From NCBI GenBank assembly GCA_043811375.1, contig JBDRNJ010000071.1, forward strand, positions 1 through 29,116: a DNA stretch of 29,116 bases. Direction: 5' to 3'. The notes beneath the pieces were generated by a model. It was not told the DNA's origin. It worked only from the letters and a program-made list of their open reading frames with translations, and ran no database searches. Below, piece after piece: positions 1,381-22,133 of the stretch. This stretch comes from a bacterium. Lineage in GTDB: Bacteria > Zixibacteria > MSB-5A5 > GN15 > FEB-12. The position numbers were made by a program, and so were the translations under genes. How positions within the stretch are numbered: the first letter of the stretch is position 1; every line of letters begins with the position of its first letter.

Positions 1381-1459
1381 ACCCCCCACCTCCCCCCTCT
1401 GGATGGGACCCAATATATATAAGTGGGTTCCCATGCTTTTGAAATGCGGATGGGTTTTT
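1381..1459. repeat. Junction element copy A
   Basis: C-tract, ATGGGACCCA (1403-1412), 11 nt, TGGGTTCCCAT (1424-1434), then TTTTGAAATGCGGATGGGTTTTT. Confidence 0.9.
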
Positions 1460-1471
1460 GGAATTGGCCAT

Positions 1472-1501
1472 GAAAAGAGGCTCCCCGGATTGAAGAGCCT
1501 C
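1472..1501 (-). terminator. Conserved-loop intrinsic terminator
   Basis: GAGGCTC-cccggattgaa-GAGCCTC with a U-tract on the minus strand, about 30 nt after the stop at 1534. Confidence 0.75.
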
Positions 1502-1533
1502 GCGTGTAGTCCAGTTTGTGTTTGCTGTCGGTG

Positions 1534-2310
1534 CTACGGGCAATCGGCCGGGTCAGGGCCGCCCCGGAAGAGGTAGGCAACCAAATGGCTCAGATCGGCA
1601 ACATCAAACGAATCATCGCCATTCACATCACCCTCTGTGGGACATTGGGGCGGCAGGCCGCCCGTGAAGAGGTACCAAACCAACGAGGTCAGGTCACCCA
1701 CGTTAACATTGCCGTTGTAGTCTACATCACCACGAATCCCGTCAGTGTTGCAGCAGCCAATAGTGAAACAGTGAGGACCATCCCAGGTCGGAGCATAGTG
1801 TTCAGTTAGAGTGGTCCACGCCCAGGTCGACCAGGGCCAGTGCACCATAGTATCCGCCACCGTATCTAAGCAGATTGTCTGGCCCAGCAGAGAAGAGTCG
1901 TCCGGTATTTCAATCGTGATGCTCCAGGCTACATGATCGTAGACAATCCAGAATCCTCCCGCCGAGTCTTCACCATAGAAAGATACTGTGTCAGCGCCGA
2001 TCCCGTCCGTTCCCGAGTGAGAGATTGACCGGTCTCCGAAAGGCAGCCATCCCGGGAGATACCGTCCGTAGGTTGTATCCCAGTAGGCGCCGTCGGGTGA
2101 GTAGAGACGGAAAGCATTATTGTAGACAAACAGACCACCGGTATGGCTGGTGTCAATCTGCACTCTCAGACGAAACTCAACTGTGCGCCCAACAGGAACA
2201 TGGTTGCCGCTCGAAGGGATGGCTTCAGACAGGGATATGGCGTCCTGTGCCTGGCCGGTGGCAGAAAGTGCCAACAGAGCTATCGCCAGCATGGTTGTTA
2301 ACCGCATCAT
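1534..2310 (-). CDS. Secreted protein: cohesin-like beta-sandwich domain plus C-terminal dockerin-like tag
   Basis: Signal peptide MMRLTTMLAIALLALSATGQA; GGAGG RBS before ATG 2310; tail CCNTDGIRGDVDYNGNVNVGDLTSLVWYLF...GDVNGDDSFDVADLSHLVAYLF. The cohesin-like label is inference. Confidence 0.8.
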   Translation of the reverse strand: MMRLTTMLAIALLALSATGQAQDAISLSEAIPSSGNHVPVGRTVEFRLRVQIDTSHTGGLFVYNNAFRLYSPDGAYWDTTYGRYLPGWLPFGDRSISHSGTDGIGADTVSFYGEDSAGGFWIVYDHVAWSITIEIPDDSSLLGQTICLDTVADTMVHWPWSTWAWTTLTEHYAPTWDGPHCFTIGCCNTDGIRGDVDYNGNVNVGDLTSLVWYLFTGGLPPQCPTEGDVNGDDSFDVADLSHLVAYLFRGGPDPADCP

Positions 2311-2343
2311 ATGCCTCCAATCTCTGATTTGTCCCATTACTGT

Positions 2344-3681
2344 CTAAGGGCACGGTGGTGGCGCAGGACCACCCTGGAATAAGTAGGCCACCAGGTACGT
2401 CAGGTCACCGACGTCAATGCCGCCGCTGCCGTCCACGTCGCCTTCGGTCTCGCACGGAGGTGGATCGCCACCCTGGAATAGATAGGCAACAAGGTACGTG
2501 AGGTCGCCGACGTCGATTGCACCGGTGTTATCAACATCACCACGTTTGTCACAACAACCTGGAGGAGGATTGAAAATGGCCAGCCCCTCATTGATTAAGC
2601 GTGTATGGCTGAAAATAAAAGTGTCATTTTCTGGAAGGTTAATAGGGGTTTTCACACTTATAAGGTTGGTGTCTGAATACTGCGGCCTTGCCCAGCTCTC
2701 AAAGATGAGATGATCTGGCTGACCGATTGCTGAATTGACCTCGTTAATCCAATCAATCGCGCCCTCGTAATAGACTTCATCAGTGTACTGCCCAAACAGG
2801 AAGAGTTGGGTCGTGAACGAAAGATCAATCAGGATAGGGGCAAAGGAGATGTTATGGGCATGAAGAAAAGTCTCCAATTCCAGCAGATCTGCCTTTGCCT
2901 GGGCGAGGGTTACTCTACCATAGATTGGTCCCGCATAGTCGATAATCCTGAGTCCGTGCACATCCAGATGAATGAACGGTAGATTGATACCCAGGTTTTC
3001 CAACTCTGCCACATATGTTTTGATTGCTTCGACATCCACCTCGGGATAGAGAATAATCTGCCCAACAATGATAGAGGGGGCTGCGCTGTTCATCAGGGTG
3101 ATAAAGTCCGCAACCATGGCGGCTATTTCAGCTAAACTTTCAGTTTTACATTCGGGTCCCTCGGAAGGAGGGTAGATGGGGGCATACCATCTTCTGATGG
3201 GTTCATCTATGGCTATATAGCGGACTGTTCCCCCATTAGCTTGCACGTTGACAATGGCATCCACTGTCCAGTTGAAGGCGTTTTGCGCAGCTGTCTGCAT
3301 CTCCAAACTACAGTCCGCAGGCGTTCCCGACGGCGTTTGCGGCAAGATGCCCGCGCCCTCAATGCAAATGTCAATCCCCCACTCATCCAATTTGGAGAAC
3401 GCCTGAACCTGGGCAAAATTGGTTAGGATGTTAGAGTTGCAAAGACCGCCCATGCAAGGCCATGAGTTAACATGGTGAGTGAGAAACTGAAACACGTCAA
3501 TTCTTGTTCGGGCGGAATCCCACTGTGCTGGGTTGGTGAATAACTGCAGCATGTCGGCGCTTCCTATGGCGGGTCCATACCACACTTCACCGCTGTCCGC
3601 GGGTTCGCTGTGGACGGAGGGGCACACAATGGTAGATGCGAGCAGAATCAGCATGGCTGTGAGTGAGAATATTGTCTTCAT
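2344..3681 (-). CDS. Secreted protein, putative glycoside-hydrolase-like alpha/beta barrel plus dockerin-like tag
   Basis: Signal peptide; alternating beta/alpha pattern with 'YIAIDEP' and 'LIFESW' acidic strand ends; duplicated dockerin EF-hand tail. The GH call is tentative. Confidence 0.75.
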   Translation of the reverse strand: MKTIFSLTAMLILLASTIVCPSVHSEPADSGEVWYGPAIGSADMLQLFTNPAQWDSARTRIDVFQFLTHHVNSWPCMGGLCNSNILTNFAQVQAFSKLDEWGIDICIEGAGILPQTPSGTPADCSLEMQTAAQNAFNWTVDAIVNVQANGGTVRYIAIDEPIRRWYAPIYPPSEGPECKTESLAEIAAMVADFITLMNSAAPSIIVGQIILYPEVDVEAIKTYVAELENLGINLPFIHLDVHGLRIIDYAGPIYGRVTLAQAKADLLELETFLHAHNISFAPILIDLSFTTQLFLFGQYTDEVYYEGAIDWINEVNSAIGQPDHLIFESWARPQYSDTNLISVKTPINLPENDTFIFSHTRLINEGLAIFNPPPGCCDKRGDVDNTGAIDVGDLTYLVAYLFQGGDPPPCETEGDVDGSGGIDVGDLTYLVAYLFQGGPAPPPCP

Positions 3682-3799: not shown

Positions 3800-3826
3800 T
3801 GGTGGAGGTGGGGGGGATCGAACCCC
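3800..3826 (-). other. 3'-terminal fragment of tmRNA (or a tRNA-Ala-like gene); att-site duplication
   Basis: Minus strand GGGGTTCGATCCCCCCCACCTCCACCA is a T-arm, acceptor 3' strand and CCA. No matching 5' half lies upstream. Confidence 0.75.
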
Positions 3827-3859
3827 ATACTCGCGTTGTGGCACAAGGAGTTACATCCT

Positions 3860-3879
3860 ATTGTGACCATATTGTGACC
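3860..3879. repeat. Tandem direct repeat ATTGTGACC-AT-ATTGTGACC, integrase arm-type site-like
   Basis: Perfect 9-bp direct repeat with 11-bp period, about 35 bp from the tmRNA fragment. Confidence 0.55.
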
Positions 3880-5108: not shown

Positions 5109-5130
5109 CATATTTTATTCACCGCAAGCC

Positions 5131-5207
5131 ACCCCCACGCCCACCCTTTAGGAGTCCCAAGGTTGAGAATGTGGGTTCCCATACGTTTGAAATGTGGACG
5201 GTTTTTT
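5131..5207. repeat. Junction element copy B
   Basis: C-tract, TTT-AGGAGTCCCA (5150-5159), 12 nt, TGGGTTCCCAT (5172-5182), then TTTGAAATGTGGACGGTTTTTT. Confidence 0.9.
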
Positions 5208-5217
5208 CGGAACGGCC

Positions 5218-5254
5218 CAAAACAACGCGAGGCTCCCGGGGGCAGAAGCCTCGC
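5218..5254 (-). terminator. Intrinsic terminator (variant of the conserved hairpin)
   Basis: GCGAGGCT-cccgggggcaga-AGCCTCGC followed on the minus strand by GTTGTTTTG. Confidence 0.7.
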
Positions 5255-5314: not shown

Positions 5315-8300
5315 CTACGGGCAAGCGGCCGGGTCTGGGCCACCCTGGAACAAGTAAGCCACTAACCAGGTCAGGTCACCTACATCAATGCCGCTGCTGC
5401 CGTCCACATCGCCTTCCTCCAGGCAGGGCGGTGTGTCTCCACTCTGGAACAGATAAGCCACCAGGAAAGTAAGGTCACCAACGTCCAGCCCCATGGAGTA
5501 GTCAGCGTCACCGCGAAGGTCGTCATGGTTGCAGCAGTTGCCGGTTGTGAAGGCAGCATAGACGCCGGTTTCTGTAATAGTCGCAGTTACTGACTTGTAG
5601 ACGGTGTCGACACAACCGCCGACCAGTTCCCAGCGGCATATGGCGGCGTGCCATCTGTAAATTCGGAGAGTCGGCGCCAACTGAGTGGCAGCGATGGAGT
5701 CACCAAGGTCCGGGTCGTAGTAGAAAATCCCCAGGCGGTTGGTGCCATAGAGGGGAGCACCATCATGGAAACACCAGGAGATGGCATCTCCGCCTTGAAG
5801 GGCCGGAGCACTGATGCCATCACGTACCGGCGTGTACTGGGTGGAGAGAATAGTGAGGCTCCGTCCGGAGCCGTTGGCAGAATCCAGCGACAGTCGGCAG
5901 CTGCCGCCCGGCCCGGAGCCGTAAAACACGGTATCGGTCTCAATGGTAGTAAGGACAACGAACGGGTTCATTACCGCATACTCGGTGTTAACCGAGTCAT
6001 AGGCATTGAGAATAATCCAGCCGGATCGACCAGGCACATTAGCGACCAGAGCGTGGTATCTGGTGCCGTTGAGAGTCAAGGGGTAGGTTGAGACGTAGTC
6101 GGTGTCATCGGAGACAACAAGGATATAGGGAGTATCAGTCGGGAGGTTGGTGGCATAGAGGCTGAACTCCAGGTCGTCCCCGGAAGGATCGATGGAGTGG
6201 GTGTAGGGATAGTAACCGACGATAGGTTCCATGTCGAGCAGCAGAATACCGGCGCTGTCCACCGGTTGGCCGCTTGATACGAGCCAGCCCTTTTGGTCAG
6301 TGGTATTACGACCGCCACCGCCCTTAGGGCACACGAACGTGCTCCGTCTCTCGGCGAACACCATGCCGCGGGAGGGGTAGAAGCCACGGAGGCGGATCAA
6401 GCCTTCCGGACAGCTACGTCCGGCGTTGATACAGCTGACAACACCTTCCCACGGCCGGAAATCGGTGCACATGGTTACCGGGCAATGGTATACACTGGCA
6501 CCGGTACATGACCCCACGCGGGTTTGCATCAGCGGTTCCGTGGCGCCGTGCTCTTGGGGCCAAATGGTGATATTCATCAGCGCCCCGACATCGTAATCAA
6601 GGTTTGACAGGTCGTCATTGGGACCCGTGAGGTACCCTTGGAGGGTGTACTCTGTTGGAAGGGTGATGTACGCACTCAGGCCAGTTTCACCGATGCCGCC
6701 AAAGCGGTCCTGGAACCAGTCGGCACATCCCATGTGACGGAAATGCCAGTGCTGAGTGTTCTGGCCTAAGGGACAGGCATACTCAACGACGCTGCGGGAC
6801 AGCTCAGTTCCTCGATCGAGGTCGTAGTCATCTTCCATGACTCCGTATACCGGCGTATGGGAGACTCGATGTCCATCGGCATCCTCGTACTCATCCCCAA
6901 AGCCAAAAAGATAGTGTCCCAGCTCATGGACTTTGACTTTGAAGTCGGTGGCTTCAGTCATGTCCAGAGGGTGCTCGTGCGATGTTCCATAAACCGAATA
7001 GAGGGCGCTGTGCCAGAACACTTTGGGAGGCACCTCGATAGACCGACCGGCGCAGGCATACCCTGTGGTCGCCCAGGCACAGAAGTGCCCATCCATTGCT
7101 GCACTGGGAGTAATGTCATTAGCGAGATAGATGCGCATGTCGGCTCGCTCCCAGCGCACCCGATTGTCATAGATGTGTACTTCACCGAGACGGACCTGGC
7201 CGTCGAAGACATCGTAAAGGAAGTTGGACACATGCCGGAGGCCCTCAGCCACACCATCCAAGTATTCCGGACTGGCGTCCCACTGTATGGAGACCGCGAG
7301 ATCAAAGGCCACCTCGGTGTGATCAAGCTGGATAGTCTGTGCGATAGCCGCATTTATCTCATTGTAGGAAACGGCACCGCTACTTTCAGAGAATGAAGCG
7401 TTGTCGACATAGACCTTGGCCAGGGTTGTGGGCAGGTAGTCCGGATGGATGAGTGCATCTTGTACATATATCTGTCTTTGAACTTTAATGGAATCTCCGA
7501 CGCGGAGACAGGCCACAATACGGCCGACATCATTGGTTGTATAGTATCCGAGCAGAGTCTGGGTCATGGCGGGGGGATCGTTAGCGACGCGGTAGACGGT
7601 GAATTCCTTGTTGGGAACGGGATCTCCATCAGCGTTCAGAATGTTCAGTATTTTGACCATAAGGTCTTTGTCAGGACATTGCAGCACGTCCACAGGGATG
7701 AAGGCAGTATTGTTGGATTCATCACATTCAGTAACTTGGTCCCAGTTGTCTACCACCACTCCGAGGTTCGCCGGACCCACAGGGTAACCGACGGAGATGC
7801 TCATAGCGGGGTTGATACTTATGCCGGACGTATCATTGGGCTGCACGATGGGGATGACCTCGACGCCGGTCAGGAGCAACGAATCGGTACTGGTGATGAC
7901 AGTATCCTCGGAAAGGTAAAAAGCAACGTAGTTGGTGTCATTGGCGGTGTCGCCGACGTTTTCGACCACGAGTTCAAGACGGGGGCCGACAGCTTCGCCG
8001 GGAAAGACAGCCGGAGGTTCGGCCAAGGTGAAGTGGTGTACTCTCAGGTCAGGACAGGCGGCGGACTCAACGATATCATAGCAGTAGGGGCCTCCCCAAC
8101 TGGGGGTGGTGGTATCACTACCGGACAATTGCCAGATCCACAGTCCGTTCAGTGGGAACCAGGACGAGTCGAGGCACAGTTTCTTGCCAATATGCGAGTC
8201 GTCAACTTGGGTCGTGATGGTCAAAACTACATCGTTGTAATCCATGGGGAGACAATTGGCCAGGGACGCGGCGCTGAGGGCGATAGTGTCGTCGTTGGTG

Positions 8301-8602
8301 CCATCGACGCTGTATCCATTAGTTAACACGAGAAGGTCGAAATACATGTCAAGGCCGCCGGCGGTGTCGTAGGTTGGTATCGTCCAGGCGGCATTTTCGG
8401 GTGAGTAGAGGCGGATGCCGTGGGTAATGCCGACCAGGGTCGTATCGGCATCATTATGCAGGTGGACATTGAAGGTAATAGACTCATTGGGAATGATCGT
8501 ACTGCCGGGTCCAGCTCCGGGGCCAGTCGCTGATATGGTGACACCAGCCCCTATGTCGGAGGGCATCATAAGCGCTGCTACCGTCAGGATGCCGGCCTTC
8601 AT
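5315..8602 (-). CDS. Secreted multidomain metallopeptidase: cohesin-like domain, CARDB, CLCA-like HExxH peptidase and dockerin-like tag
   Basis: Signal peptide from MKAGIL (start uncertain; the ORF extends to 8656). CARDB end 'VTECDESNN'; 'HELGHYLFGFGDEY' matches the CLCA HExxHxxxGxxDEY motif; dockerin tail. Confidence 0.8.
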   Translation of the reverse strand: MKAGILTVAALMMPSDIGAGVTISATGPGAGPGSTIIPNESITFNVHLHNDADTTLVGITHGIRLYSPENAAWTIPTYDTAGGLDMYFDLLVLTNGYSVDGTNDDTIALSAASLANCLPMDYNDVVLTITTQVDDSHIGKKLCLDSSWFPLNGLWIWQLSGSDTTTPSWGGPYCYDIVESAACPDLRVHHFTLAEPPAVFPGEAVGPRLELVVENVGDTANDTNYVAFYLSEDTVITSTDSLLLTGVEVIPIVQPNDTSGISINPAMSISVGYPVGPANLGVVVDNWDQVTECDESNNTAFIPVDVLQCPDKDLMVKILNILNADGDPVPNKEFTVYRVANDPPAMTQTLLGYYTTNDVGRIVACLRVGDSIKVQRQIYVQDALIHPDYLPTTLAKVYVDNASFSESSGAVSYNEINAAIAQTIQLDHTEVAFDLAVSIQWDASPEYLDGVAEGLRHVSNFLYDVFDGQVRLGEVHIYDNRVRWERADMRIYLANDITPSAAMDGHFCAWATTGYACAGRSIEVPPKVFWHSALYSVYGTSHEHPLDMTEATDFKVKVHELGHYLFGFGDEYEDADGHRVSHTPVYGVMEDDYDLDRGTELSRSVVEYACPLGQNTQHWHFRHMGCADWFQDRFGGIGETGLSAYITLPTEYTLQGYLTGPNDDLSNLDYDVGALMNITIWPQEHGATEPLMQTRVGSCTGASVYHCPVTMCTDFRPWEGVVSCINAGRSCPEGLIRLRGFYPSRGMVFAERRSTFVCPKGGGGRNTTDQKGWLVSSGQPVDSAGILLLDMEPIVGYYPYTHSIDPSGDDLEFSLYATNLPTDTPYILVVSDDTDYVSTYPLTLNGTRYHALVANVPGRSGWIILNAYDSVNTEYAVMNPFVVLTTIETDTVFYGSGPGGSCRLSLDSANGSGRSLTILSTQYTPVRDGISAPALQGGDAISWCFHDGAPLYGTNRLGIFYYDPDLGDSIAATQLAPTLRIYRWHAAICRWELVGGCVDTVYKSVTATITETGVYAAFTTGNCCNHDDLRGDADYSMGLDVGDLTFLVAYLFQSGDTPPCLEEGDVDGSSGIDVGDLTWLVAYLFQGGPDPAACP

Positions 8603-8672
8603 CAGGCCTCTCAAAGGGATAGCTTCTTCCATGGCATTGGTCCTCGCAGGCATCACCCTTAGTAATCACCGT

Positions 8673-8714: not shown

Positions 8715-8785
8715 ACCACCCCCCTTTCGATGGGACCCATTTTACGAAGTTGGGTTCCCATCGGTCTCAAATGTCTACGGTTTTT
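8715..8785. repeat. Junction element copy C
   Basis: CCCCCCTTTCG-ATGGGACCCA (8730-8739), TTTTACGAAGT, TGGGTTCCCAT (8751-8761), ...AAATGTCTACGGTTTTT. The core is almost identical to copy E. Confidence 0.9.
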
Positions 8786-8796
8786 CAGATTCACCC

Positions 8797-8832
8797 AAAA
8801 CAACACGAGGCTCCTCGGATTGAAGAGCCTCG
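8797..8832 (-). terminator. Conserved-loop intrinsic terminator
   Basis: CGAGGCTC-ctcggattgaa-GAGCCTCG with a minus-strand TGTTGTTTTG tail. Confidence 0.75.
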
Positions 8833-8877
8833 CTGTCATCCACCGCGCCGATAGCGTGCTCGGCGGCTAAAGGGGAT

Positions 8878-11800
8878 TTAACACGGTGGTGGTGGTGGGC
8901 CACCCTGGAATAAATACGATACCAGCCAGGTCAAGTCGCCCACGTCGATACCACCGCTGCCGTCGACATCGCCCTCTTCCATACATGGCGGCGCCGGACC
9001 ACCCTGGAAGAGATAGGCTACTAAGTAAGTAAGGTCACCGACGTCCACCCCCATAGTGTAATCGGCATCACCGCGAATGCCATCATGGTTGCAACACCCC
9101 ACCTGGACTGAATCTTCGTTGCTCATCTCCGAGACTATTTTGGATCCATCGATTGATGACACCCGGTAGTAGCGTTTCTCATCCGGGCTCACCGGACGAG
9201 TATCGTACCACTGAAAGCCGGTCAGTTCAGGATCGGCATCGATGGCAACGGTGTCAATCGCGGTATGGCCTGTATCGATGGACCCCGTATCAGAGAAGAT
9301 GTAGTATCCGCGAATCCTCTCAACACCGCCGGTAGTGTCCGTAGTTGGTATTGTCCAAGTCAATCTGGCTGTCGTATCAGCGCTCGAGACAACTGTCGCT
9401 GTCAAATCGTTGACTGGTACGGGTGGATATTCGTCAATGCAGTAAGCGAATGTCGCTCCACCGATGATTTCACTGGGATTGTCCTCGCGAACGAAGTGGG
9501 TACTTACGACAGCGGAGTCGTTATGTTGTGGGAACGGTGCCACAAGAGTAACTTCCAACTCGACACTGCTATCCGGTTCGAGCCAGAAAGGACCCTCATC
9601 TTCAAAAGAGACAGTCCACCCGGTCGGGAGTGCCGCCAATGTAGCCGAATCGAAAACTGGCATGAAATTGGCAGTATCGTCCGTAGGGTTATATCCGTTG
9701 ATTACTGAACGGAAAACAGAGGTATCGCTGAGCCACTGATCGTTGTTGGGAGCAGGTTTTGGTAGGTTCTGACCCGCCCGTTGGTACATCGCATTCATGT
9801 TGATTTGGGCTACATTGTTATCTGGCAGATTAACATCGTAGTGAGGTGGGTCGCCGAGGACATGTAGGACCGCCCCGACACAGTAATGCTTATACTTAGT
9901 ATGACCAGGATCGGCGTCGGGCGGTACCAACCATTTCATGCCTACGAGGGCTTTTCCCAAAGGTGGAATGGGAGGAAATATCGCTATATCAATAAAAGTG
10001 GCGGCACCCGGAAAGCGGAGGCCCATACTCGCCTCGACATAGAATCCGCTGACAGTAACATCGGTTATGGTGGCGTTGGTAAGGTTAGTTGCGACAAAAT
10101 ATAGTTTGTTCATTTGGCCAGGCAAGGGGGGGTCTTGTTTGTCGATTGGTCCATTAACGTAGTTGTTGATATAGATGTCAGGGCTTTCCCAGTGAACGGG
10201 ACAATCGGGGTCCGGCTCCGTACCTACATCTGCCACGCAGTCCCGTATCATGACGATCTCGGGACCGGTTGCAATAATCAGTCTAATGAGTCCATTCCAT
10301 GTCGTCAATCTGGGGCAAGTCCAAGATCCGATGGTGTTCGGTTCCACGAACACCATCGGATTTTCCAAACCCTTGGAATCATTGTCTTGATTATGATCAT
10401 GGAGCAGTCGCAAGTAGGCTTTGCCGAGGATATATCCACCTCCATTGACGCGTACCGCGTGTCCCCCTGCAGGGTATTCTCCAATCATCCACCAGAGTCC
10501 CAGTTCTATCGCTTCGCCATCCTCGAAGCGCTGGCGGACCCACTCGAAGTTGATGTATGATGGGTAGGGTTCCGTGTCGTCTTTTGCTATGGAGTTACCG
10601 CATGGGAAATTACCAGGCAGGCCTATGTGAACGGGATGGATTTGAAAATGATGATCCAAATTGTCCGTTAATTCCCCACTAATGTAATCGCACTTGCCGC
10701 CGATCCACTGTGAGAACTTCACTCCACTACCATCTCGGCGATCAATTACAGGCCGGTTCATGTATGTGTCGAGCTGACCGACCAGTGTGTTGTCACCTTT
10801 GAGCCCCATCAGGTGATCATGAGGAACGTTTATAACATCTGTGCCATAGCGATTTTCGAGATACTGGAGGTTGTTAGACACTGCGCAAGGAGCACACTGA
10901 CTATAAGCGCATTCGATATTCACGTCCCACTGTGTCTGGCGAAAGCCAGAGGTAGCTCCTTTTCCTTCAAATTCAACTCGTCCCGGCGGGTCAGGGACGG
11001 ATGTAAAGGGAATCGTATCGATACCTCCTACAGCGATTGTATCTGACTGCACCGGATAGAACACCCTCGGTCCGTCGCCGTGTGAAACTTTTGGCTCAGA
11101 AGTGAATGTAAAGTACATTGAGAGCAAATCAAGTGCCGTGCCGTTGGGGATACCCAGGTCGAAGTTAGTCGATGCTTCACCCCAATGATCGTTAGTATCG
11201 ACTATCAAATTCTGAATCACCCAGCCAGTGTCAGTATAGGCATTGAGATACCCAGCGCTCATACTAAGCGCCTCGGTGAAAGTCTCGATTGCCACACCGA
11301 TGCGACCCCAGGCGGTGTTGTGTGCCACTGAGTCATCCAGCGCCCAATCCATCTGGCTGATGGTTACCCCCGGAAAAGGTTCACCGCAGCACACCTCTGC
11401 CTCGATCATGAAGACAAAATCCACTCCATAGAGATCATACAGTGTGTACCATAGTCCACCGCCCTGGTAGTGAGTTACGGAACGTTCTTCACCCGCATAA
11501 GGTCCGGCTCCGGTGTCGGTCAAGGGATACAACGTATCCCCTTCACCACCGATAGTCTCAAAACAAATGTGGTATTCGTCTCCGGCACTGAATACCAGGT
11601 TGTAGCTTGAAAAGTCTGCCACAGCCCAGCCAAAACTCTCACTCGGCAAGGAACCGTATGGTATAGTGACTGACACCAGAATCGTGCCTGGAAGACCGAA
11701 ACCATCGTCGTCATAGACCGCCACATGCAGGTCCGGCGTTCCGGTCATGTAAGGGCGATACAACTTGATTCGCACCACATTCAAAGTACATGCCGAAACG

Positions 11801-12081: not shown

Positions 12082-12289
12082 TGTGTTCCTTCTCTCTTGT
12101 TAACATGAATTGCCCGCCGAAATCGACGTTTTCGGTATACGTTCCCGGAGCTACCAGCACTGTATCCCCGGCTCCACACGCATCAATCCCCGCCTGTAGC
12201 GTCGGCTGATCTGCTGGAACGTGGATTGTGGCGGCATTGAGACTGATAGTAGCGAGAATAAGGCAGCAGCCCAGTATCAATACTCTCAT
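12071..12289 (-). pseudogene. N-terminal fragment of a secreted right-handed beta-helix (pectin-lyase-like) protein
   Basis: GGAG RBS, signal peptide and 'ATIHVPADQPTLQAGIDACGAGDTVLVAPGTYTENVDFGG'. Similarity ends at about 12113 and the frame runs into the leader of the next gene. Confidence 0.8.
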
Positions 12290-12447: not shown

Positions 12448-12483
12448 GGGGTTGCCCTTAGCTTCTGCTTCTACCTAATGCCC

Positions 12484-13716: not shown

Positions 13717-13781
13717 ACTCTACTCCTGGCATGTATCTGCCCGATCAGCCGGAATGGCTGTATCGGAATTTGTTATTGTAT

Positions 13782-13810
13782 AATATAGCACATTTTCGTC
13801 TTTTTGACAA
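13782..13810 (-). promoter_or_regulatory. sigma70-type promoter TTGTCA-17-TATATT with extended -10 TG
   Basis: Hexamers and spacer seen directly upstream of the DUF1028 gene. Confidence 0.6.
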
Positions 13811-13863
13811 GCATCTTCGTCGTTTACCCCTTACCCTGGATTGTGGGGTAATCCGTGACACAT

Positions 13864-13956: not shown

Positions 13957-14004
13957 TTCAGTTATGACTTGGTTCATCTTCATGATGATCGACCGTACAC
14001 CACT

Positions 14005-14080
14005 CCCCCCCCCCACCCCTTTCGATGGGACCCATTTTACGAAGTCGGGTTCCCATCAGGTTGAAACGTCGATGGGTTTT
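14005..14080. repeat. Junction element copy E
   Basis: C10-ACCCCTTTCG-ATGGGACCCA (14025-14034), TTTTACGAAGT, CGGGTTCCCAT (14046-14056), then TTGAAACGTCGATGGGTTTT. Confidence 0.9.
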
Positions 14081-14089
14081 CGTTGGCCC

Positions 14090-14127
14090 AAAACAAGAAC
14101 GAGGCTCTCCGGATTGAAGAGCCTCGT
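14090..14127 (-). terminator. Conserved-loop intrinsic terminator
   Basis: ACGAGGCTC-tccggattgaa-GAGCCTCGT with a minus-strand TCTTGTTTTG tail. Confidence 0.75.
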
Positions 14128-14171: not shown

Positions 14172-14747
14172 CTAACACGGAGGTGGTGCCGGTCCTCCTT
14201 GGAACAAGTACGCCACCAGGTACGTCAGGTCGCCGACGTCAATGCTGCCTGTGCCGTCGACATCACCTTCATCTTCGCATGGGGGTGGTGGACCACCCTG
14301 AAAGAGATAGGCAACAAGATACGTCAGATCGCCAACGTCAATTGCACCGGTGTTGTCAACGTCACCACGTTTGTCACAACAACCAAAACTCTGCCAGTAA
14401 CCTTGATTGATGCTGTAGCTGGCTGATGAGGCGCCACCAGTTGCTGTCTGCGCCAATGTGCTCATCAGGAGAAAGCTGGCCGAGGAAGCGTTGGTTCCGC
14501 CACCGGAGATAACCTGCCAATTGATTTGTTCACCGGACATTGGCGAGGTTGGTGACTGACTGACCGGCAAAGCTGGCTCTGTTGTCGTACTCGCCGTTGG
14601 TGTTGTCGTTGCTGTCAGCGCCTGCTTCTCACCCGTTACCGCTTTTGGCTGGGAAGACTTCGTCTTGTCACCAGCCAGGGCCAGGCTGACCGCAAGCACC
14701 AGACAAAGCAGCAGCGCCAGAATAACTGAACTATTCTGAATCTTCAT
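14172..14747 (-). CDS. Small secreted protein: Thr/Pro linker, 'INWQVISGGG...QGYW' domain and dockerin-like tag
   Basis: Signal peptide; overlaps the upstream gene by 17 nt; dockerin tail. Confidence 0.85.
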   Translation of the reverse strand: MKIQNSSVILALLLCLVLAVSLALAGDKTKSSQPKAVTGEKQALTATTTPTASTTTEPALPVSQSPTSPMSGEQINWQVISGGGTNASSASFLLMSTLAQTATGGASSASYSINQGYWQSFGCCDKRGDVDNTGAIDVGDLTYLVAYLFQGGPPPPCEDEGDVDGTGSIDVGDLTYLVAYLFQGGPAPPPC

Positions 14748-16242
14748 TTAGTGCTTCTCTCCCTTCGGCTCGTTTCAGGTCTTCTTTCATTTCTTCGTAG
14801 TTGACATGCTTCTCTATCGGTTGGCCGTGCACTTCCGGGTTCAGGTAGGTGCCGATCTCGGTCGACGGCTTGTCCACTTCAACCTGAATCCGATTGGTCT
14901 GAGCCCACTTATCGTTGCGGATACCGGTAACCAACCAACTAACTTTCATCCCCGGTTCTCCACCGGCGATACGAAAATGGTTGCCAGAGATTTCATCGGC
15001 CACGTAGACCGGTGCAAAGCTACCTATACAGGTCAATTGATACCGGAAGTCCATGTTGAGCGCGTCAAAGTAATCTGGCAGGGTCACGGTCGCGGTACCG
15101 TTCCCGTCCAGGGTGACATTGCCGTTGTAGATATTCATCATATCCGGTGACTCGACAAAGCTGTGCTGCAGGTATTTGTGCTCGGGATCGACCGGGTGAT
15201 CAATCTTAAACGACCCACCTGATTTGCTCAGGGTCCCGTTAACATGGACGTTGCCGTCGAAATAGCCGGCATATTTTATAGCGGAAGTACCATCAACGAC
15301 GCCGTAGATGGCGTAGACACTCGCGCCCGTGCCACCGTAGGCAGTTGCCCTTACTCCGTAGGAATTCCCACTGGTATTTGATAGGTCGCCGCTGAAAACC
15401 TGTACACCGTAGCGGTCGGAGCCGCCTGTCGGATTATTGTTTACATCTGCATACAGGCCGTATACGGTACCGGTGCCGCCACTGGTGTTCCCAATAAATG
15501 ATCTGACACCATACAGAGATCCGTTTCCCTGCAATAGACCATTGCCCACATACTGCTGAAGTCCACCAACGATTCCTCCATCTTGGTTGAGAACTTCGCT
15601 ATAGTGAGCATAACGTGGACTGGATGTGTTGTATACCCTCGCGGTCCGCAATAGGTAGGAGCTTGTTGGAGGATTATCGTTACCGATAATGATGCCGACA
15701 TTGTTTGCGCGGAAAGTGCTGTCACCGATCTGAACCGACGCCGGCGGGTCGAAGTAGTTGTTCAGTGTGAAGTGATTGTTCTGGCTCAGGGTTGCATAGT
15801 AAGCCGGTGGTTGGGAACCGAGTTTGTTGGCATCCTGCGCCAGTCCGGCCGTATCGGACCGCAGAGCGTGATATGCGTACGACGCCGACACCAGCTTGGT
15901 GCGGGGTATCATCTCCGGGTCGGAGTCGACCGTGATACCCAGTTCTCGGGTGGTGTCAGTAAACAAGTCGTGGGGCAGCACCGGTTGTGGGGGAACGCCC
16001 AGCAGGACCTCAAAGAGGCCGTTGTCGACTTGAACAGTCTGGAAAGCACTGTTCCATTTGTCGGTGCCGACCCCGTCATAGATGATGAATTTCATCAAGA
16101 CCGGACCGTTGTAAGGGGTACCGCTCGAATTGATCAGCCGCCCCTGATAGCTGATCGTCTGAGGTACTTCCGCGGTTGCCAGCGGGATCAGTAGCAGCAG
16201 AAATGAGATTAATGTTGCGATTAGCATTACCATACGAGTCAT
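14731..16242 (-). CDS. Secreted fibre-like surface protein ('VPQTISYQG' N-domain, Gly-rich beta repeats, chaperone-like coiled C-terminus)
   Basis: 'VPQTISYQGRL...NGLFEVLLG...PRTKLVSASYA'; YGVxG repeats; 'GGSFKIDHPVDPEHKYLQHSFVESP' C-terminal domain; AAGGAG RBS. Confidence 0.8.
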   Translation of the reverse strand: MTRMVMLIATLISFLLLLIPLATAEVPQTISYQGRLINSSGTPYNGPVLMKFIIYDGVGTDKWNSAFQTVQVDNGLFEVLLGVPPQPVLPHDLFTDTTRELGITVDSDPEMIPRTKLVSASYAYHALRSDTAGLAQDANKLGSQPPAYYATLSQNNHFTLNNYFDPPASVQIGDSTFRANNVGIIIGNDNPPTSSYLLRTARVYNTSSPRYAHYSEVLNQDGGIVGGLQQYVGNGLLQGNGSLYGVRSFIGNTSGGTGTVYGLYADVNNNPTGGSDRYGVQVFSGDLSNTSGNSYGVRATAYGGTGASVYAIYGVVDGTSAIKYAGYFDGNVHVNGTLSKSGGSFKIDHPVDPEHKYLQHSFVESPDMMNIYNGNVTLDGNGTATVTLPDYFDALNMDFRYQLTCIGSFAPVYVADEISGNHFRIAGGEPGMKVSWLVTGIRNDKWAQTNRIQVEVDKPSTEIGTYLNPEVHGQPIEKHVNYEEMKEDLKRAEGREALNEDSE

Positions 16243-16403
16243 GGTGTTACTCCTTCTGTTGGTTCTATATTATAGGTTATTCTGATTGTTGCCGTGTCTC
16301 CTTCCAATGCTGTCATCAACCTTTTTGCAATAAGGGGGCTTCTCTTATTGAAAAGTCTCTCACTAATCGCGATCAACCGCTATCGTATTAGCCGGTTAAT
16401 CTC

Positions 16404-18569
16404 CTAACATGGCGGTGGGGCACCTCCCTGGAAGAGATAAGCAACCAAATAGGTCAAATCGGCGACGTCGATACTCTTGTCATTGTTGGTGTCACCGGTT
16501 TCGATTATTACCGGAGGTAATCCACCTTGAAATAGGTAGCTGACCAGATATGTGAGGTCACCCACATTAATGTCACCACTATTGTCAGGATCGCCGCGTC
16601 GTCCCATGGCATACACGATAATCTCCGCATTGCCGGCGTATTCATCGGCATCGTTGTAGGCGTAGAAAATGACTCGGCCGGTGTCCTCACAACCGACAGC
16701 ATTATCGTGAGAGACTCCAACCCAGTACTCGGTGGGTGTTGGCACCCATCCAGAATCGCTGACTACGTATGACCATCCCTCGGGCAGGAATGACTGCTGA
16801 TACAGATACAGACTGTCTCCGTATTCGGTCCCGATTGTGAAGCTACGCCAGGTTTCCCCTGCGGTCCGCCTACCGGAGGGCAGTCCATTGACCGGAGGTC
16901 CGGAAGCAGCAGATGTCGGACACTCATGACACGGAGGGTGCGCGTTATCTGAGCAGCCTGGTAAGGTCCCCGGATGATCCCTAACAATATCGGGGCATGG
17001 TATACTGTTCGTACCAAAGGTAAAGGAGTATTCGTTACTGCAAGGGCACTTGTCTTCTTTGTCGCAGATACCGTCGCCGTCGCCATCGGGGTCACCAGTC
17101 TCACACTTATTTTCCTGCCCGGCGGTGACATTCAGTTGGCCGCCGGTACTGCCGTTGGAGCGGAAGACAATCGGCGGGCTGGTCGTCCGGGTGATTAGCC
17201 GTGGCCATACTTCAAACCTGAAGCAACCGTGGCGTTGTGTCTCAGGTGCAATGAACTCCTCACACAACCAGACCGAATCCTCCGGTCCGATAGCAATATC
17301 GTAATGGGCCGGATTAACCGTCCACGGATTGGCTATCCCAAATACGCCACTACCGGCAAAGACGGCACTATCCAGGACGGCATCGAGGCGCAACAAGTTG
17401 CGCACTAAGGCACAGACCTGGAAAGTATTGTTGGCGTAAATCAGATGCTGGGCAGGGACAGTGCTCAGGGAAACCGTGAAATAGTTGGACAGATACTCCC
17501 AGCATCCTAAGTCCATGTGAAGCGCAAGGAAATCCCAATCGGCATCATCAACATTGCCATCGGTATTGTAATCATTGCAGTCATCGCCCACAAAATCCGC
17601 CGGCATCACTTTCAGGCTGCCGTCGTGATCGAGCGACTTGATCGGCACCTGAGCAATCTCCCCGTGGGTTGACATTACCTTGACCAGGTCTGGGCTGCAA
17701 CCGCCGGCTCCAACTGATATGGAAATGAGGCCGTCGGCATCGCTGAGACCGGAGGGAAATACCAGCGGCCAGGTAGTTTCCGAAGCGCAGGGAGTGAGGC
17801 CGGAGACTTCCGAAAAGTCAAGCCAGGCGTTGACGGAACCCTCAATAGGAAGCCCAGTGTTGTCCTTCAGAATAACATTGAACAGGACGTTCCCGGCTGG
17901 CGACAGGATCAGCACCGGATCGGCGGTGGAAAATGTGGGGTCGCCGCCGCTGCAACCACCGACAACCATAGGGACAACCATCGTGTCGCTGAGAGAACCA
18001 TCCCAAGCAAGGAATGTCGCTGTATAGACTCCGAACTGTGATGCTCCAGGTGTCCACTGAAAAGCACCGCTACCGTTCCAATAGTCAACGAAACTGCCTC
18101 CCACCGGGAGGTCTTCCGCGGTTAGTGCCGGTGTGTAGCCGTTGGGGTCAATGGCCGTGACATCAAATGTCAGAACTTGACTCACTTCCCCGCACGGCGC
18201 TTCAATCGACTGAAACTCCGGAGGCAGGTCCTGAAAGATCGTATCCTGCATGGTGCCGGGATGGAATTCGCAGTGGTACGGAAACGGGCCGATACCGTCG
18301 ACAGCTACAAACACGACAGAGTAGCTTTGCCCGGGGGTGTCCATGGTGCCGGAATTCCAAGCCTTGAGTGAAGACGGGTCGGATGATGTTGTGTGGGTAC
18401 CATTAACGAGAGTCCAAGTGACGGTGTCTCCGGCCTGAACCCAGGTGCCGGACGGTGAATAATAGAAATCGCCCACGTCGATGTTATGAATGGTGGCTGT
18501 CGCTGATGTCCACGACATGGCTAACATCACGATAATCGATGTGGCGATGAGTGTGTTCACTCGTGTCAT
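16404..18569 (-). CDS. Secreted protein: cupredoxin (plastocyanin-like) domain, Ig-like domains, Cys-rich segment and dockerin-like tag
   Basis: 'GDTVTW....HTT' and 'YHCEFHPGTM' copper ligands (H, C, H, M); Ig 'FVDYWNGSGAFQWTP'; dockerin tail. Start MTRVNT at 18569. Confidence 0.85.
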   Translation of the reverse strand: MTRVNTLIATSIIVMLAMSWTSATATIHNIDVGDFYYSPSGTWVQAGDTVTWTLVNGTHTTSSDPSSLKAWNSGTMDTPGQSYSVVFVAVDGIGPFPYHCEFHPGTMQDTIFQDLPPEFQSIEAPCGEVSQVLTFDVTAIDPNGYTPALTAEDLPVGGSFVDYWNGSGAFQWTPGASQFGVYTATFLAWDGSLSDTMVVPMVVGGCSGGDPTFSTADPVLILSPAGNVLFNVILKDNTGLPIEGSVNAWLDFSEVSGLTPCASETTWPLVFPSGLSDADGLISISVGAGGCSPDLVKVMSTHGEIAQVPIKSLDHDGSLKVMPADFVGDDCNDYNTDGNVDDADWDFLALHMDLGCWEYLSNYFTVSLSTVPAQHLIYANNTFQVCALVRNLLRLDAVLDSAVFAGSGVFGIANPWTVNPAHYDIAIGPEDSVWLCEEFIAPETQRHGCFRFEVWPRLITRTTSPPIVFRSNGSTGGQLNVTAGQENKCETGDPDGDGDGICDKEDKCPCSNEYSFTFGTNSIPCPDIVRDHPGTLPGCSDNAHPPCHECPTSAASGPPVNGLPSGRRTAGETWRSFTIGTEYGDSLYLYQQSFLPEGWSYVVSDSGWVPTPTEYWVGVSHDNAVGCEDTGRVIFYAYNDADEYAGNAEIIVYAMGRRGDPDNSGDINVGDLTYLVSYLFQGGLPPVIIETGDTNNDKSIDVADLTYLVAYLFQGGAPPPC

Positions 18570-18647
18570 AGTGTTACTTCCTCTACTTCTCAAAGCATCA
18601 AAGGTGTTTGTCAGGTGCTACTCGTATAGTTCGTGCAAACATAACCT

Positions 18648-20816
18648 TTACCTGTTTTGGGCCAGTTCACTGTTGCCGCCACTGGTGCGATTTTGCTGTG
18701 CCAGAATCGTTTCCACCAATGCCTGCATCTGTGCCAGTTGACTCCCCAATGAGTCAATCTTTGCGTTATCGCTCTCGCGGAGTCGATGCAACTCCGCCAA
18801 CTCTGACTCCAGCGACTCTACTGCCGCATGTTTCCGTACGGCAAGCCCGACCATGTCTTTTCTTAGTTTCTCGATCAGTCGGCTCTGGTGGCGAACTGTC
18901 TCCAGTAGATAAAGCGGTACGCGATCATACTTAACAGCATCAGGTTGGCCGTTATTGTCGTAGATGACCAGCTCCGGAATAACCTGGGCCACCTGTTCGG
19001 CAACCAGACCTATATCCGATTCACCGGTCGACTTCCACTCAAACATGACCGGCCGCAGTTCCAAAGCATCCTCCGGCTCCATGTCAAGTGCGCCTATATT
19101 CTTCTTGTACCTGGCGCTTGACGAAGCCCTTAGCAGGACACCGTTGCCATCAACAACTACATTGGTTCCGGTACCTGACGGCATATTTCTCAACCTGGCT
19201 GTTCCGTCAACATCAAGCCGTTCCGTTGGTGTCGATGTCCCGATTCCAACCGTGTCGGTCACGTAAAACACATTTTTTGAAAACGCTCCGTACAGCGAAT
19301 GTGTGCTTCTCCAGGCGTCATCTTTGGAGGCAGCACTATAGATAATTTCATACAGAATCGTGTAGTCATCCCATGTCACTCGGCCATCACCATCAAGGTC
19401 AGCTTCGGCGTATCCGGTTGTAGTCAGGTAGACACTCCCCGACAGGTAGTTCATCATCAACAATAGGTCACTAATATTCACTGATTGATCATCGTTGGCG
19501 TCGCCGGCGCCACCGAGAGTATAGATGCTACCGCTGTCATGAAGTTTGGCCGCCGGGGCCTCGGTACCCAGGCCGGTTTTGCCGCTGACATAAAACACAC
19601 CTTCGGCAGCTGTCCCGTATACCGAATGCGCCTTTCTCCAGGCTTGATCCCTGGTGCTACCACCGATAATCATCTCGTACAGAATCGTAGCGTCCTCCCA
19701 GGTCACACGGCCATCACCGTCCATGTCGGCCTCGGCATACCCGGTTGTGCTCAGGTAAGCAATTTCGTACAGGTAGGCTTTGATCGCGATATAGTCAGTG
19801 AGATTCGTCAAATCGTCATCGTTCGCATCGCCATCGCCGCCAAGCGTATAAATGCTCCCGCTGTCATGCAGGTTCGCTGCCGGGGTCTGCGTACCCAGGC
19901 CGGTCTTGCCAGTGACATAGAACACGTCTTTGGCGATGGCCCCATACAGGGAATGCACGTCACGCCAGGCGTCATCCTTGGTGGCGGCGCTGTAAATGAT
20001 CTCAGATAGAATCGTATAGTCATCCCACGTCACCCGGCCGTCACCGTCCAGATCAGCCTCAGCGTACCCCGTGGTGGTCAGGTAAACGTTTCCCAACAGG
20101 TAGTTAAGCATCAGGACCATGTCTGCGATACCCACCGAGAGGTCGTCATTGGCGTCGCCGGCGCCACCGAGAGTATAGATACTCCCGCTGTCGTGCAGGT
20201 TCGCGGCCGCGCTGTTGGTGCCGATGCCAACCCTGCCGCTGGGGCCATCGACGTCAAAAACGATATTTGCAGCGGGTCCAACTCCATCACGAACGTGGAA
20301 GGTGGCACCGCCGACAGCCATCACGTCGAGAGTGGCCCAGCCAGCGTGACGGTCGGACTCATCTGATTTGATTGAGGTCGTATCCACTACCGCCATCGGA
20401 CCGATGATTGTACCTCCGGAGGCACTGTCGACGGTGCTGACCCGTATACTATACGGAGACGATGTCAGGCGGGTTCGCGGAATGAGCTCCGGGTCGCTGC
20501 CCACTTTGATACCCAGCCATCGGTTGGGCTGGTTAAAAACACTGTCGTCTATTGGGTAAGTTGCCCCGAGTAAAACACTGAAGATGCCACTTACGACTGT
20601 TACAGATGTGTGGAGTTCACTCCATTTCGAAGTTCCACTCGTAGAATCAATGTAAATTGTGAAATCCATTGACACGGTTGTGTCGAGCGGGTCTCCTGAA
20701 CTGTTCGTCAGCTGACCCTGGTAGTTGATCGTTTGCGGCACTCCGGCCACCACCGGCGTGGCCATTACCATCGCTGCAACGATCAGAGTTGTTGTGAGTG
20801 TGATCACTCTTGTCAT
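18648..20816 (-). CDS. Secreted fibre-like protein with three internal dockerin-containing repeats and a C-terminal peptidase S74 intramolecular chaperone plus coiled coil
   Basis: 'VPQTINYQGQL' N-domain; 'GRVGIGT' fibre motifs; 'SSSARYKKNI...LRPVMFEWK...IGLVAEQV..VIPELV' S74 signature; GGAGGT RBS. Confidence 0.85.
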   Translation of the reverse strand: MTRVITLTTTLIVAAMVMATPVVAGVPQTINYQGQLTNSSGDPLDTTVSMDFTIYIDSTSGTSKWSELHTSVTVVSGIFSVLLGATYPIDDSVFNQPNRWLGIKVGSDPELIPRTRLTSSPYSIRVSTVDSASGGTIIGPMAVVDTTSIKSDESDRHAGWATLDVMAVGGATFHVRDGVGPAANIVFDVDGPSGRVGIGTNSAAANLHDSGSIYTLGGAGDANDDLSVGIADMVLMLNYLLGNVYLTTTGYAEADLDGDGRVTWDDYTILSEIIYSAATKDDAWRDVHSLYGAIAKDVFYVTGKTGLGTQTPAANLHDSGSIYTLGGDGDANDDDLTNLTDYIAIKAYLYEIAYLSTTGYAEADMDGDGRVTWEDATILYEMIIGGSTRDQAWRKAHSVYGTAAEGVFYVSGKTGLGTEAPAAKLHDSGSIYTLGGAGDANDDQSVNISDLLLMMNYLSGSVYLTTTGYAEADLDGDGRVTWDDYTILYEIIYSAASKDDAWRSTHSLYGAFSKNVFYVTDTVGIGTSTPTERLDVDGTARLRNMPSGTGTNVVVDGNGVLLRASSSARYKKNIGALDMEPEDALELRPVMFEWKSTGESDIGLVAEQVAQVIPELVIYDNNGQPDAVKYDRVPLYLLETVRHQSRLIEKLRKDMVGLAVRKHAAVESLESELAELHRLRESDNAKIDSLGSQLAQMQALVETILAQQNRTSGGNSELAQNR
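19227..20207 (-). repeat. 3 x 327-bp (109-aa) intragenic tandem repeat
   Basis: LHDSGSIYTLGG.GDANDD...YAEAD.DGDGRVTW.D recurs with an exact 327-bp period (for example 19507, 19834, 20161). Confidence 0.95.
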
Positions 20817-21228
20817 GGTGTTACCTCCATTAGTGTTTCACTAAATACAGATGAGATTCCTAATTGTCGGTAGAAAGTTGTGACAAGGGTTCTGTGTGGG
20901 TCAATGCTGTCGGTCTGTTGGTGCATGCACCAATAATGAGAATCGATCACCTTGTCGTCCTTACCGCGCTTGTCATAACCCGAATCATTCAAGAGTAATG
21001 ACCGAGCCGATCCTGATTTGGCAGGATCATGTTCCGGAAGAAAGCGAGCAGTAATGTTGTCTGCTAATTGATTGTAATATAGCTATTTTGCAATGATGCG
21101 CAAGTAAGAATACCGGCAAGGGCAGGTGAAGTCAACGGAGGGGAAAGGGTGGCGGGGGACTATCGAGATCATAGTGTCGAACCTCATGTCCCATAGCGCT
21201 GCGTAAGAAGCCTGAGCGACTGCCCGGT

Positions 21229-22084
21229 ATGCTGCAGAAAGACGACTTGCTACTTGTCGATCAAGGTTATTTCAAACTCAAAACCCTTGCCAAGATCGTA
21301 GCTAAAGAGGCGTTCTTTCTGACACGGTTCCTTGTTCGCACCGTATTGAAAGATCCGCTCACCCAAGCCCCGATCGATCTGGCAAAGCGTTTGAGCACGT
21401 TGTCGGGCAACGCCTGCGAAATGCAGGTGCTGATGGGCGGCGATAAACTTTACCAGGTTCCTTGTCGGCTGATCGCCCTTCGCGTGAGTGAACAGATCGC
21501 CAATGAGCGACGCAGGCGGCTGAAAAAAGAGGCCAGGAAGAAAGGACGAGCCGTCAGCAAGTACCACCTGCGTATGTGCGACTGGACACTGTTGATTACC
21601 AATGTTCCCAAACGTTCGTTGCCGCTGGAGATGGCCCGTGCGCTCTACACTGTACGCTGGCAGATCGAACTGTTCTTCAAGCAACTCAAATCCATCCTCC
21701 GCGTCCACCAATCCGATACCGGTAAAGAGAACCGCTTACGCTGTGAGCTGTATGGCAAACTGATCGGCGCAGTCCTCATCCATCGCATCCATGCCGCTGA
21801 AACAAACAGGTTATGGAATACCAAACGCAGGGAGGTCAGCATGGATAAACTCTATAAACGCTTTCAGGAACGAGCTTTCACCCTTCTACGTATGCTGCTT
21901 CGCTCTACCGTTGAAGCCATTGCTTACTTAAACGACCAGATTAAATGCATCATTCCCGCTTGCCTTAAGGGACGACAGCGATCACGCCTGACTACTCTCG
22001 AAATACTGGAAACCCAATGCGATCCAATGCTCGAAATTAGGAAGCCCCCCATCGGAACACGGGCCGCTTAGCTTAACACCTATG
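21229..22084 (+). mobile_element. IS4-family element, 5'-truncated transposase (ORF 21229-22071) with right terminal IR
   Basis: 'LLLVDQGYF' and 'LYTVRWQIELFFKQLKS' (YREK motif); only 280 aa, so the N-terminal part is missing. Ends ...CTTAGCTTAACACCTATG (CAT-starting IR on the other strand). Confidence 0.85.
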
Positions 22085-22090
22085 CCGGGC

Positions 22091-22133
22091 ACCCCCCTTT
22101 AGGAGTCCCGGGATATTGAGATTAGGTGCCTAC
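22091..22133. repeat. Junction element copy F (degenerate)
   Basis: ACCCCCCTTT-AGGAGTCCCG, 12 nt, TAGGTGCCTAC. Shares CCCTTTAGGAGTCCC and TTGAGA with copy B. Confidence 0.7.

Follow-up and report, generated by a model that had tools for sequence, protein, structure and literature searches.

What is the repeated element that punctuates a run of dockerin-tagged genes in a Zixibacteria genome, and how was the run assembled? The window analysed here, 29,116 bp long, is a whole contig (C71) of the source genome G000, which measures 3.56 Mb and is 95% complete. C-numbers denote contigs of G000, G008 is a genome of a different genus, and L-numbers are compared loci. An earlier note on the window took the element for the recombination site of a dockerin-cassette system, with a phage packaging-like signal as a minor alternative. 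That alternative has become the best supported, through a match of the element's left half to a motif beside phage terminase genes. The element may well be, at about an even chance, a phage-type (pac-like) packaging signal at the core/cargo border of satellite-like islands. The array would then be a pile of such islands that have lost their cores and kept signal and cargo.

Structure and occurrence of the element

The element of about 85 bases is real. The window holds five full copies (A–E) and one degenerate copy (F), all on the plus strand. Each full copy runs in the order C-tract, box 1, spacer, box 2 (with one extra T) and a GAAATG..GGTTTT tail. Pattern and profile model thus recover the six co-oriented copies of the earlier note (at 1381, about 5130, 8715, about 12370, about 14005 and 22091) and the inverted boxes with one unpaired T. 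A strict two-box pattern matches five times in the 29-kb window, twice in the remaining 3.53 Mb and never in 300 shuffled windows. The profile model, built from 18 copies, assigns E-values of 1e-17 to 1e-21 to copies A–E and 2e-10 to copy F. The copies are as follows.

1381–1467 (+): copy A, with C-tract, box 1, 11-nt spacer, box 2 and tail
5128–5212 (+): copy B, with a GGAGTCCC-type box 1 and a 12-nt spacer
8715–8792 (+): copy C, whose C-tract is the exact start of 92% homology with sister locus L135
12368–12454 (+): copy D, without a terminator hairpin
14002–14083 (+): copy E
22091–22165 (+): copy F, left half one base off the phage motif, right half degenerate, facing the start of a 215-aa gene

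Successive spacings are 3748 bp (A–B), 3579 bp (B–C), 3662 bp (C–D) and 1633 bp (D–E). Copies within the genome are 70–85% alike. In an alignment of 14 full copies, both boxes are kept, as are the blocks GAAATG and GGTTTT; the spacer and the six bases past box 2 vary. Spacers fall into several sequence types and measure 11, 12 or 13 nt, so the fixed spacer length proposed earlier does not hold. Box changes break pairing: a single-strand hairpin of the attC type leaves 6 of 70 cells unpaired with no compensatory pairs, and GGAGTCCC-type copies fold differently. Since the boxes are conserved, the spacers vary and compensation is absent, the pattern fits protein binding to double-stranded DNA rather than a folded strand, and a putative double-stranded binding site is favoured.

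The profile model was searched against 150 genomes: G000, G008 and 148 others. G000 holds 10 copies, A–F plus one each on C50, C69, C83 and C84, mostly beside secreted-protein genes; the element is not scattered genome-wide, which agrees with the earlier note. G008 holds two, an inverted pair around one gene. The remaining 148 genomes gave ten single weak matches (E 0.001–0.047), most inside open reading frames (ORFs), which were dropped as probable chance. The one in G023 is an intergenic, weak two-box look-alike after rnc (L009, G023:C3:550571-550621; E about 0.001–0.05), with a small gene convergent to it. When all species genomes were scanned with an exact pattern, 65 loci matched; a good score was reached at the G008 locus alone, and the others were set aside as chance or as a different repeat of the repetitive extragenic palindromic (REP) type. 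In a pattern scan of the phylum, 12 other genomes had one match each, similar to the reversed control, leaving G008 as the one real occurrence. A metagenome scan returned eight loci, three being the G008 locus and five coming from one assembly with a sister lineage 85–93% identical. Those five carry seven sites, so that the sister lineage, seen in metagenome loci, has at least seven.

The element is rare, and absent from the families and literature searched. Covariance models of Rfam found no match in the window at E<=1. In integrons, RYYYAAC/GTTRRRY R boxes flank the L boxes of attC; the element alignments have no conserved AAC/GTT columns, and the best match to the integron integrase IntI (TIGR02249) in the 95% complete genome reached 86 bits against a cut-off of 265. 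The view that this is no Rfam, attC or REP family is thereby borne out, there being no REP-like dispersal either. A miniature inverted-repeat transposable element (MITE) or REP-like repeat, inserted behind terminators by an HUH (RAYT-like) or other transposase, is extremely improbable. Two Y1 transposase-like genes in the genome and the inverted pair around the G008 gene would suit such a repeat. Against this, the 10 copies are few, diverged and clustered in islands, with no terminal inverted repeats or target duplications; IS110 is missing from G000; a search for Y2 transposases, uninformative in itself, was empty; and the look-alike REP-type matches form another hairpin and reach no better than E 0.01.

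A phage terminase-adjacent motif and the islands that carry the element

The left half of the element, a C-tract plus a GG(G/A)(A/GT)CCC box, was searched in viral contigs. Adjacency to terminase genes had been predicted beforehand, from the earlier note's alternative. For the GGAGTCCC type, viral matches numbered at least 120, whereas its reversed pattern had 18. Among 80 retrieved matches, 73 lie just upstream (most by 45–85 bp) of a gene pair of about 200 and then about 510 aa. Of the large ORFs, six were tested and all six proved to be terminase large subunits (E<1e-100); one of six small ORFs weakly matches a small terminase. The GGGACCCA type with C-tract gave four viral matches: two between the small (terS) and large (terL) terminase genes, one about 85 bp past a P2-type terS and one unrelated. 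Among the phage flanks the most frequent one (CAC, a sixth C, then A) recurs in copies F and L135c, beyond the letters searched. A phage 17-mer run against the whole genome, a partly circular comparison, finds copy F alone within one edit, and F, B and one other place within two. The terL genes of the motif phages are closest to those of pelagiphages HTVC023P and HTVC027P. In these two a GGG(A/T)CCC box stands about 20 and about 110 bases before terL, without a C-tract (counted by eye). Viral contig ends fall within 200 bp of the motif six times in 73 upstream and never downstream, where 1.7 would be expected on each side, a weak signal biased by terL selection and homopolymer breaks. A conserved C-tract plus GG(A/G)..CCC motif thus stands beside the terminase genes of several phage groups (viral loci L157–L236 and L299–L301), and no description of it was found in the literature searched. 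For a pac-type site, likeness to phage terminase-region DNA is present in the left half. Passages of PMC9611059 place pac sites in or near terS in P22 and SPP1, and elements that hitch with nothing but cos or pac are expected, in passages of PMC11389934, to share these motifs with their helpers.

The clearest island lies on C69. An intact 13,630-bp integrative element with two serine recombinases is bounded by tRNA-Glu and a 17-bp duplicate of the tRNA 3' end (G000:C69:22008-35694, L005). From the tRNA it encodes a large serine recombinase, helicase-like and primase-domain proteins, small ORFs, a resolvase and proteins of 144 and 140 aa. The site follows, and then four cargo genes. The site therefore marks the core/cargo border, between the 140-aa zinc-finger/helical gene and the cargo. 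Phage-inducible chromosomal islands (PICIs) have been described in passages of PMC10085698 as carrying an integrase, a regulator, a primase-replicase, a small terminase and accessory genes past terS. The C69 island has an integrase at a tRNA with att duplication (the large serine recombinase and tRNA-Glu) and a primase-replicase module with CHC2 zinc-finger/primase PHROG matches; a 554-aa neighbour has no family match. Among its 10 core ORFs, Pfam and PHROG gave no match to an AlpA/MerR/Stl regulator or a capsid-modifying gene. The 140-aa CCCH-finger/helical protein has 90 homologs, and 17 of 60 of its relatives weakly match HGGxSTG (best E 2e-4). On C84 the copy follows, at a distance of 69 bp, a tyrosine integrase gene located at tRNA-Ser. 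This integrase (C84:102168-103283) is 91% identical to one on C83 (C83:24303-25421) at a different tRNA-Ser gene. C83 retains a primase/sigma-like core; C84 has only the integrase, a degenerate site and a Ser/Thr kinase. Sister loci L139 and L141 carry integrase-type end repeats.

Comparison with the sister lineage places synteny breakpoints at the C-tract, in line with the earlier note. L135 corresponds to window 8715–12135 and 12480–13825 at 92% identity; its first block begins exactly at the C-tract of copy C, and beyond its second block lie genes that in G000 belong to the C69 island. The gene at window 23876 has no copy beside it in the window, but its promoter region in L139 is directly adjoined by a full one, and homology stops in the C-tract. 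The promoter left of copy D recurs four times elsewhere in G000, each time with no element beside it, its homology ending where the C-tract would start. In F, L134 and L135a the C-tract side directly adjoins the end of an insertion sequence (IS), IS3 and IS21 being among the families. On C50 a host terminator passes straight into box 1. The tail side is continuous with the shared terminator and dockerin end. With breakpoints and IS ends at the C-tract and continuity at the tail, the C-tract side has the properties of a terminus of transferred DNA. Read-derived contigs from relatives (one run) gave no usable junction.

Neighbouring genes do move. A cargo gene of G008 is 91% identical to a G000 gene without a site, compared with 72% for the elongation factor G genes of the two genera, which points to recent transfer. 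Dockerin-coding ends are 70–80% identical, and dockerin DNA may serve as a swap anchor for cargo domains. Between L133:4111-7089 and G000:C11:54623-57487, the gene body is 91% identical across genera and homology stops within the dockerin-coding end. L134 was considered as the filled version of an empty C11 site and rejected; its contig is circular, with ends overlapping by 29 bases, and may be an assembly loop. At L141:4085-5134 in the sister lineage, the portal-like gene of the capsid/terminase cluster described below is interrupted by the end of an island, after which come the element and cargo; this is either a real insertion or an assembly artefact.

From these sequences we infer binding, cutting, packaging and their order as follows. 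(i) The small terminase of a helper phage or island would bind the two inverted boxes. (ii) A cut would fall in the C-tract or close to it, and packaging would proceed in the direction of the tail, taking terminator, gene and promoter along. (iii) The end at the C-tract would then be joined to local DNA, such as a promoter, IS end, host terminator or integrase stop, either in the recipient or in place. (iv) The other side would recombine through shared island DNA or the similar dockerin-coding ends. (v) Repeated rounds with deletion of cores would yield site-cargo-site-cargo arrays. The dockerin link would reflect cargo preference, not mechanism.

A number of results weigh against packaging. 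The 73 motif phages form one related clade (identity 28–100%, median 62%). The full two-box form occurs in no viral contig, matches being confined to the left 16–19 nt, and a third, looser left-half pattern gave 12 viral matches with no clear terminase link. The C69 140-aa protein, a candidate small terminase only, has no PHROG, Pfam or fold match, and the C-tract faces its gene, the reverse of most phage loci. No site occurs at 31 other loci with homologs of this family, beside 29 related integrases (the sole match among 30 loci being the C84 copy itself) or beside 30 terL loci of the phylum. Only one att scar is present among the window's five units. An obligate link of the site to the 140-aa gene was rejected on the homolog loci without a site, and one to the tRNA-Ser integrase family on its presence at 1 of 30 loci. 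Against cultured phages, blastn of two copies returned short chance matches only, and tblastn of two candidate small terminases found no match.

In phages, moreover, the motif could be a late promoter or activator site. The element may then be a phage-derived regulatory site (a late promoter or activator dyad), or a passive relic copied with terminators and dockerin ends by homologous recombination, in either case with no role in transfer. A position ahead of the packaging operon suits a late promoter equally, P2-type late activators are known to bind dyads with an 11–12-nt spacer, and the degenerate copies F, C84, L135c and G008b face gene starts. The tail, however, faces a dockerin gene end in 12 of 19 distinct sites (11 by pattern, G008a by locus comparison), often behind a terminator; the boxes are kept while spacer and flanks diverge; and the C-tract breakpoints are sharp. 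A regulatory site or relic is accordingly held improbable.

It is very improbable that the element is an oriT, the origin from which conjugative transfer starts, on islands that lack a relaxase and are mobilized in trans as in iOriT islands. It would account for an inverted repeat adjoining a G-rich tract in islands without a relaxase, and such iOriT islands are described as common in bioRxiv 10.64898/2026.01.13.699239. Against an oriT, the G/C-tract varies and offers no constant sequence for nicking, and the likeness is to phage terminase regions. MOB_P (PF03432) and TrwC (PF08751) relaxases, the two families searched, are absent from G000 and G008, though a helper could be elsewhere.

The array, its cargo and a possible helper

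The other features of the window are listed here.

1477–1501 (−): terminator-like hairpin between cargo stop and tail, common to most copies
1534–3681 (−): pair of dockerin-tagged genes, of 267 aa and 445 aa, towards the tail of copy A
3800–3879 (−): duplicate of the 3' end of transfer-messenger RNA (tmRNA) with two 8-bp direct repeats, the att scar of a tmRNA-targeting island
about 5225–5254: imperfect terminator hairpin after copy B
5315–8656 (−): gene for a dockerin-tagged CARDB protein, 1113 aa
8807–8831 (−): terminator-like hairpin after copy C
8878–12081 (−): dockerin-tagged gene, 1067 aa, whose L135 ortholog has another spacer type
12071–12289 (−): truncated 72-aa N-terminus of another cargo-gene family, with promoter, a deletion or fusion scar
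12484–13716 (−): DUF1028/invasin-D3 dockerin-tagged gene, 410 aa, whose L135 ortholog (92%) stands beside a different core
14101–14125 (−): terminator-like hairpin after copy E
14172–20816 (−): four secreted-protein genes, two ending in a dockerin tag and one with internal dockerin/EF-hand repeats
21192–22084 (+): truncated DDE_Tnp_1 (IS4-type) remnant ending 7 bp left of the C-tract of copy F; left end judged by eye
23679–27757 (+): promoter region and 1293-aa FG-GAP dockerin gene, with no copy here; sister L139 has a full copy abutting it
27800–27825 (+): terminator hairpin of the same family without an element core

The 722-aa gene at 18648–20816 has three 327-bp internal dockerin/EF-hand-type repeats and a C-terminal intramolecular chaperone (Peptidase_S74) domain. 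A tRNA and tmRNA gene search of the window found none. Both contig ends (1–144 and 28975–29116) are multi-copy repeats common to many other contig ends, so the array may extend past the window.

Part of the unit structure first described stands. Copies A–E lie just past dockerin-tagged genes, with the stop codon 85–157 bp away, and copies A–D have a -35-like hexamer of the next unit 44–59 bp left of box 1 (E and F have none). A terminator hairpin does stand beside most copies, on the tail side; it travels with the element, and is missing at D. The uniform cassette of promoter, gene, tag, terminator and site did not survive: A–B holds several genes and the tmRNA att scar, and C–D holds the truncated 72-aa stub. 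Nor is copy F an array member after a dockerin gene, since it follows the IS4-type remnant and faces a gene start.

The element is not a general dockerin feature. A site lies behind 6 of the 79 dockerin-tagged ORFs of G000, three of the four copies outside the window are not beside a dockerin gene, and 4 of the 10 copies lack one on the tail side. With these counts and the 12 of 19 sites that face a dockerin gene end, the site prefers dockerin genes and neither defines nor needs them. No relevant literature on dockerins of Zixibacteria was found.

Sequences like the island-end scar at 3800–3879 occur at seven other places, on C45 (two), C51 (two), C80 (two) and C83. Members of the family have 8-bp direct repeats in pairs, and most also retain a remnant of the tmRNA 3' end; together they resemble a broken-up pile of tmRNA islands. 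The single att scar in the window means that simple tandem integration alone does not explain the array. The C-tract was also considered as a degenerate tmRNA att core and rejected: the true scar (3800–3826) is on the other strand, the T-loop is missing, and the element does not follow tmRNA or scars.

The earlier note's preferred explanation, an undescribed cassette system in which a trans-acting recombinase excises and inserts promoter-gene-terminator-site units, is now unlikely. It gains from the co-oriented array, from breakpoints at the element edge and from the extra base in one box, a property of attC sites as well; G000 also has 10 tyrosine and 12 serine recombinase matches, and the C84 copy is directly behind an integrase. 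It is opposed by spacers that vary in length and type and by orthologous units with different ones (C and L135a, D and L135b). The remaining 73 of 79 dockerin genes have no site, and no recombinase tracks the site across genomes, neither an IntI above cut-off nor the relatives of the tRNA-Ser integrase. The unpaired, uncompensated hairpin positions and the phage likeness of the left half point the same way.

The phylum does have a possible helper. On C74, at about 16500–32000 (L333), portal, terL, protease-like, capsid and head-tail genes are clustered, with no integrase match in the contig. Across the phylum terL is matched in 261 of 285 genomes and the capsid in 98 of 101, mostly in single copy. 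The cluster is possibly gene transfer agent (GTA)-like; no relevant literature on gene transfer agents in Zixibacteria was found. Were this domesticated capsid/terminase cluster to read the site, pieces of about 3.6–4.4 kb would be packaged from the C-tract and joined into arrays. The three successive spacings from A to D fit such a length (P=0.016 in a crude post hoc simulation), small GTAs being known to package about 4 kb, and the cluster is integrase-free and near-universal. Passages of PMC8443750 report pac-like host sites and non-random GTA packaging. The cluster is phylum-wide, yet the element is convincing in 2 of 150 genomes; no copy lies near the cluster in G000 or seven relatives, and no small terminase was identified in it. 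With D–E at 1633 bp, internal deletions in units and an element rare where the cluster is universal, reading by this cluster is held improbable. It is likewise a long shot that the 85-bp signal lets promoter-gene-terminator modules for dockerin surface proteins hijack the cluster, with pieces of about 3.6 kb stacked into integron-like arrays without a recombinase.

Comparison with known systems

According to passages of PMC11389934, few packaging signals are known for satellites and coreless islands, and finding them is difficult. The element is a concrete candidate: it connects arrays of cargo in the chromosome with a motif of phage terminase regions that is widespread and apparently undescribed. 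For the domesticated capsid cluster of the phylum it offers a first substrate to test. Packaging predicts the exact start of particle DNA. If it is correct, genes beside the element could pass from cell to cell in virus particles, packaging signals can give rise to cassette-like arrays with no need of an integron-type recombinase, and the surface-protein repertoire of the phylum is partly exchanged by packaging.

Integron attC arrays are alike in having co-oriented sites past the ends of genes and an inverted repeat that is imperfect, with a single extra base and a loop that varies. The element differs in lacking R-box ends, IntI and compensatory pairing, and its units have their own promoters and terminators and may hold several genes. 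The iOriT islands, as outlined in bioRxiv 10.64898/2026.01.13.699239, follow the same logic, in which only a short cis signal is kept and a helper is hitched, whereas the likeness here is to phage terminase-region DNA and not to oriT. Among tandem-accreted genomic islands, the ssrA islands of Dehalococcoides (PMC3146451) share the tmRNA 3'-end scars and island-end repeats seen in the window and on other contigs; the element itself, unlike their att scar, is on the opposite strand, has no tmRNA T-loop and does not follow tmRNA or scars.

The PICIs and satellites treated in passages of PMC10085698 resemble the 13.6-kb C69 island in their integrase at a tRNA, primase/helicase-like module, distal cargo and, as a candidate here, small terminase gene. 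The island differs in its large serine recombinase plus resolvase and in the absence of a detected AlpA/Stl or capsid gene, and most site copies have no core at all. The element is unlike its phage matches in its second inverted box and tail, and in recurring in tandem with cargo. It is unrelated in sequence to the P22 pac quoted in PMC9611059. Like the pac sites of the headful phages P22, Sf6 and SPP1 in passages of that source, its phage counterpart is a short cis signal at or beside terminase genes. Like the chromosomal pac-like sites in passages of PMC8443750, the element would direct the packaging of adjoining host DNA.

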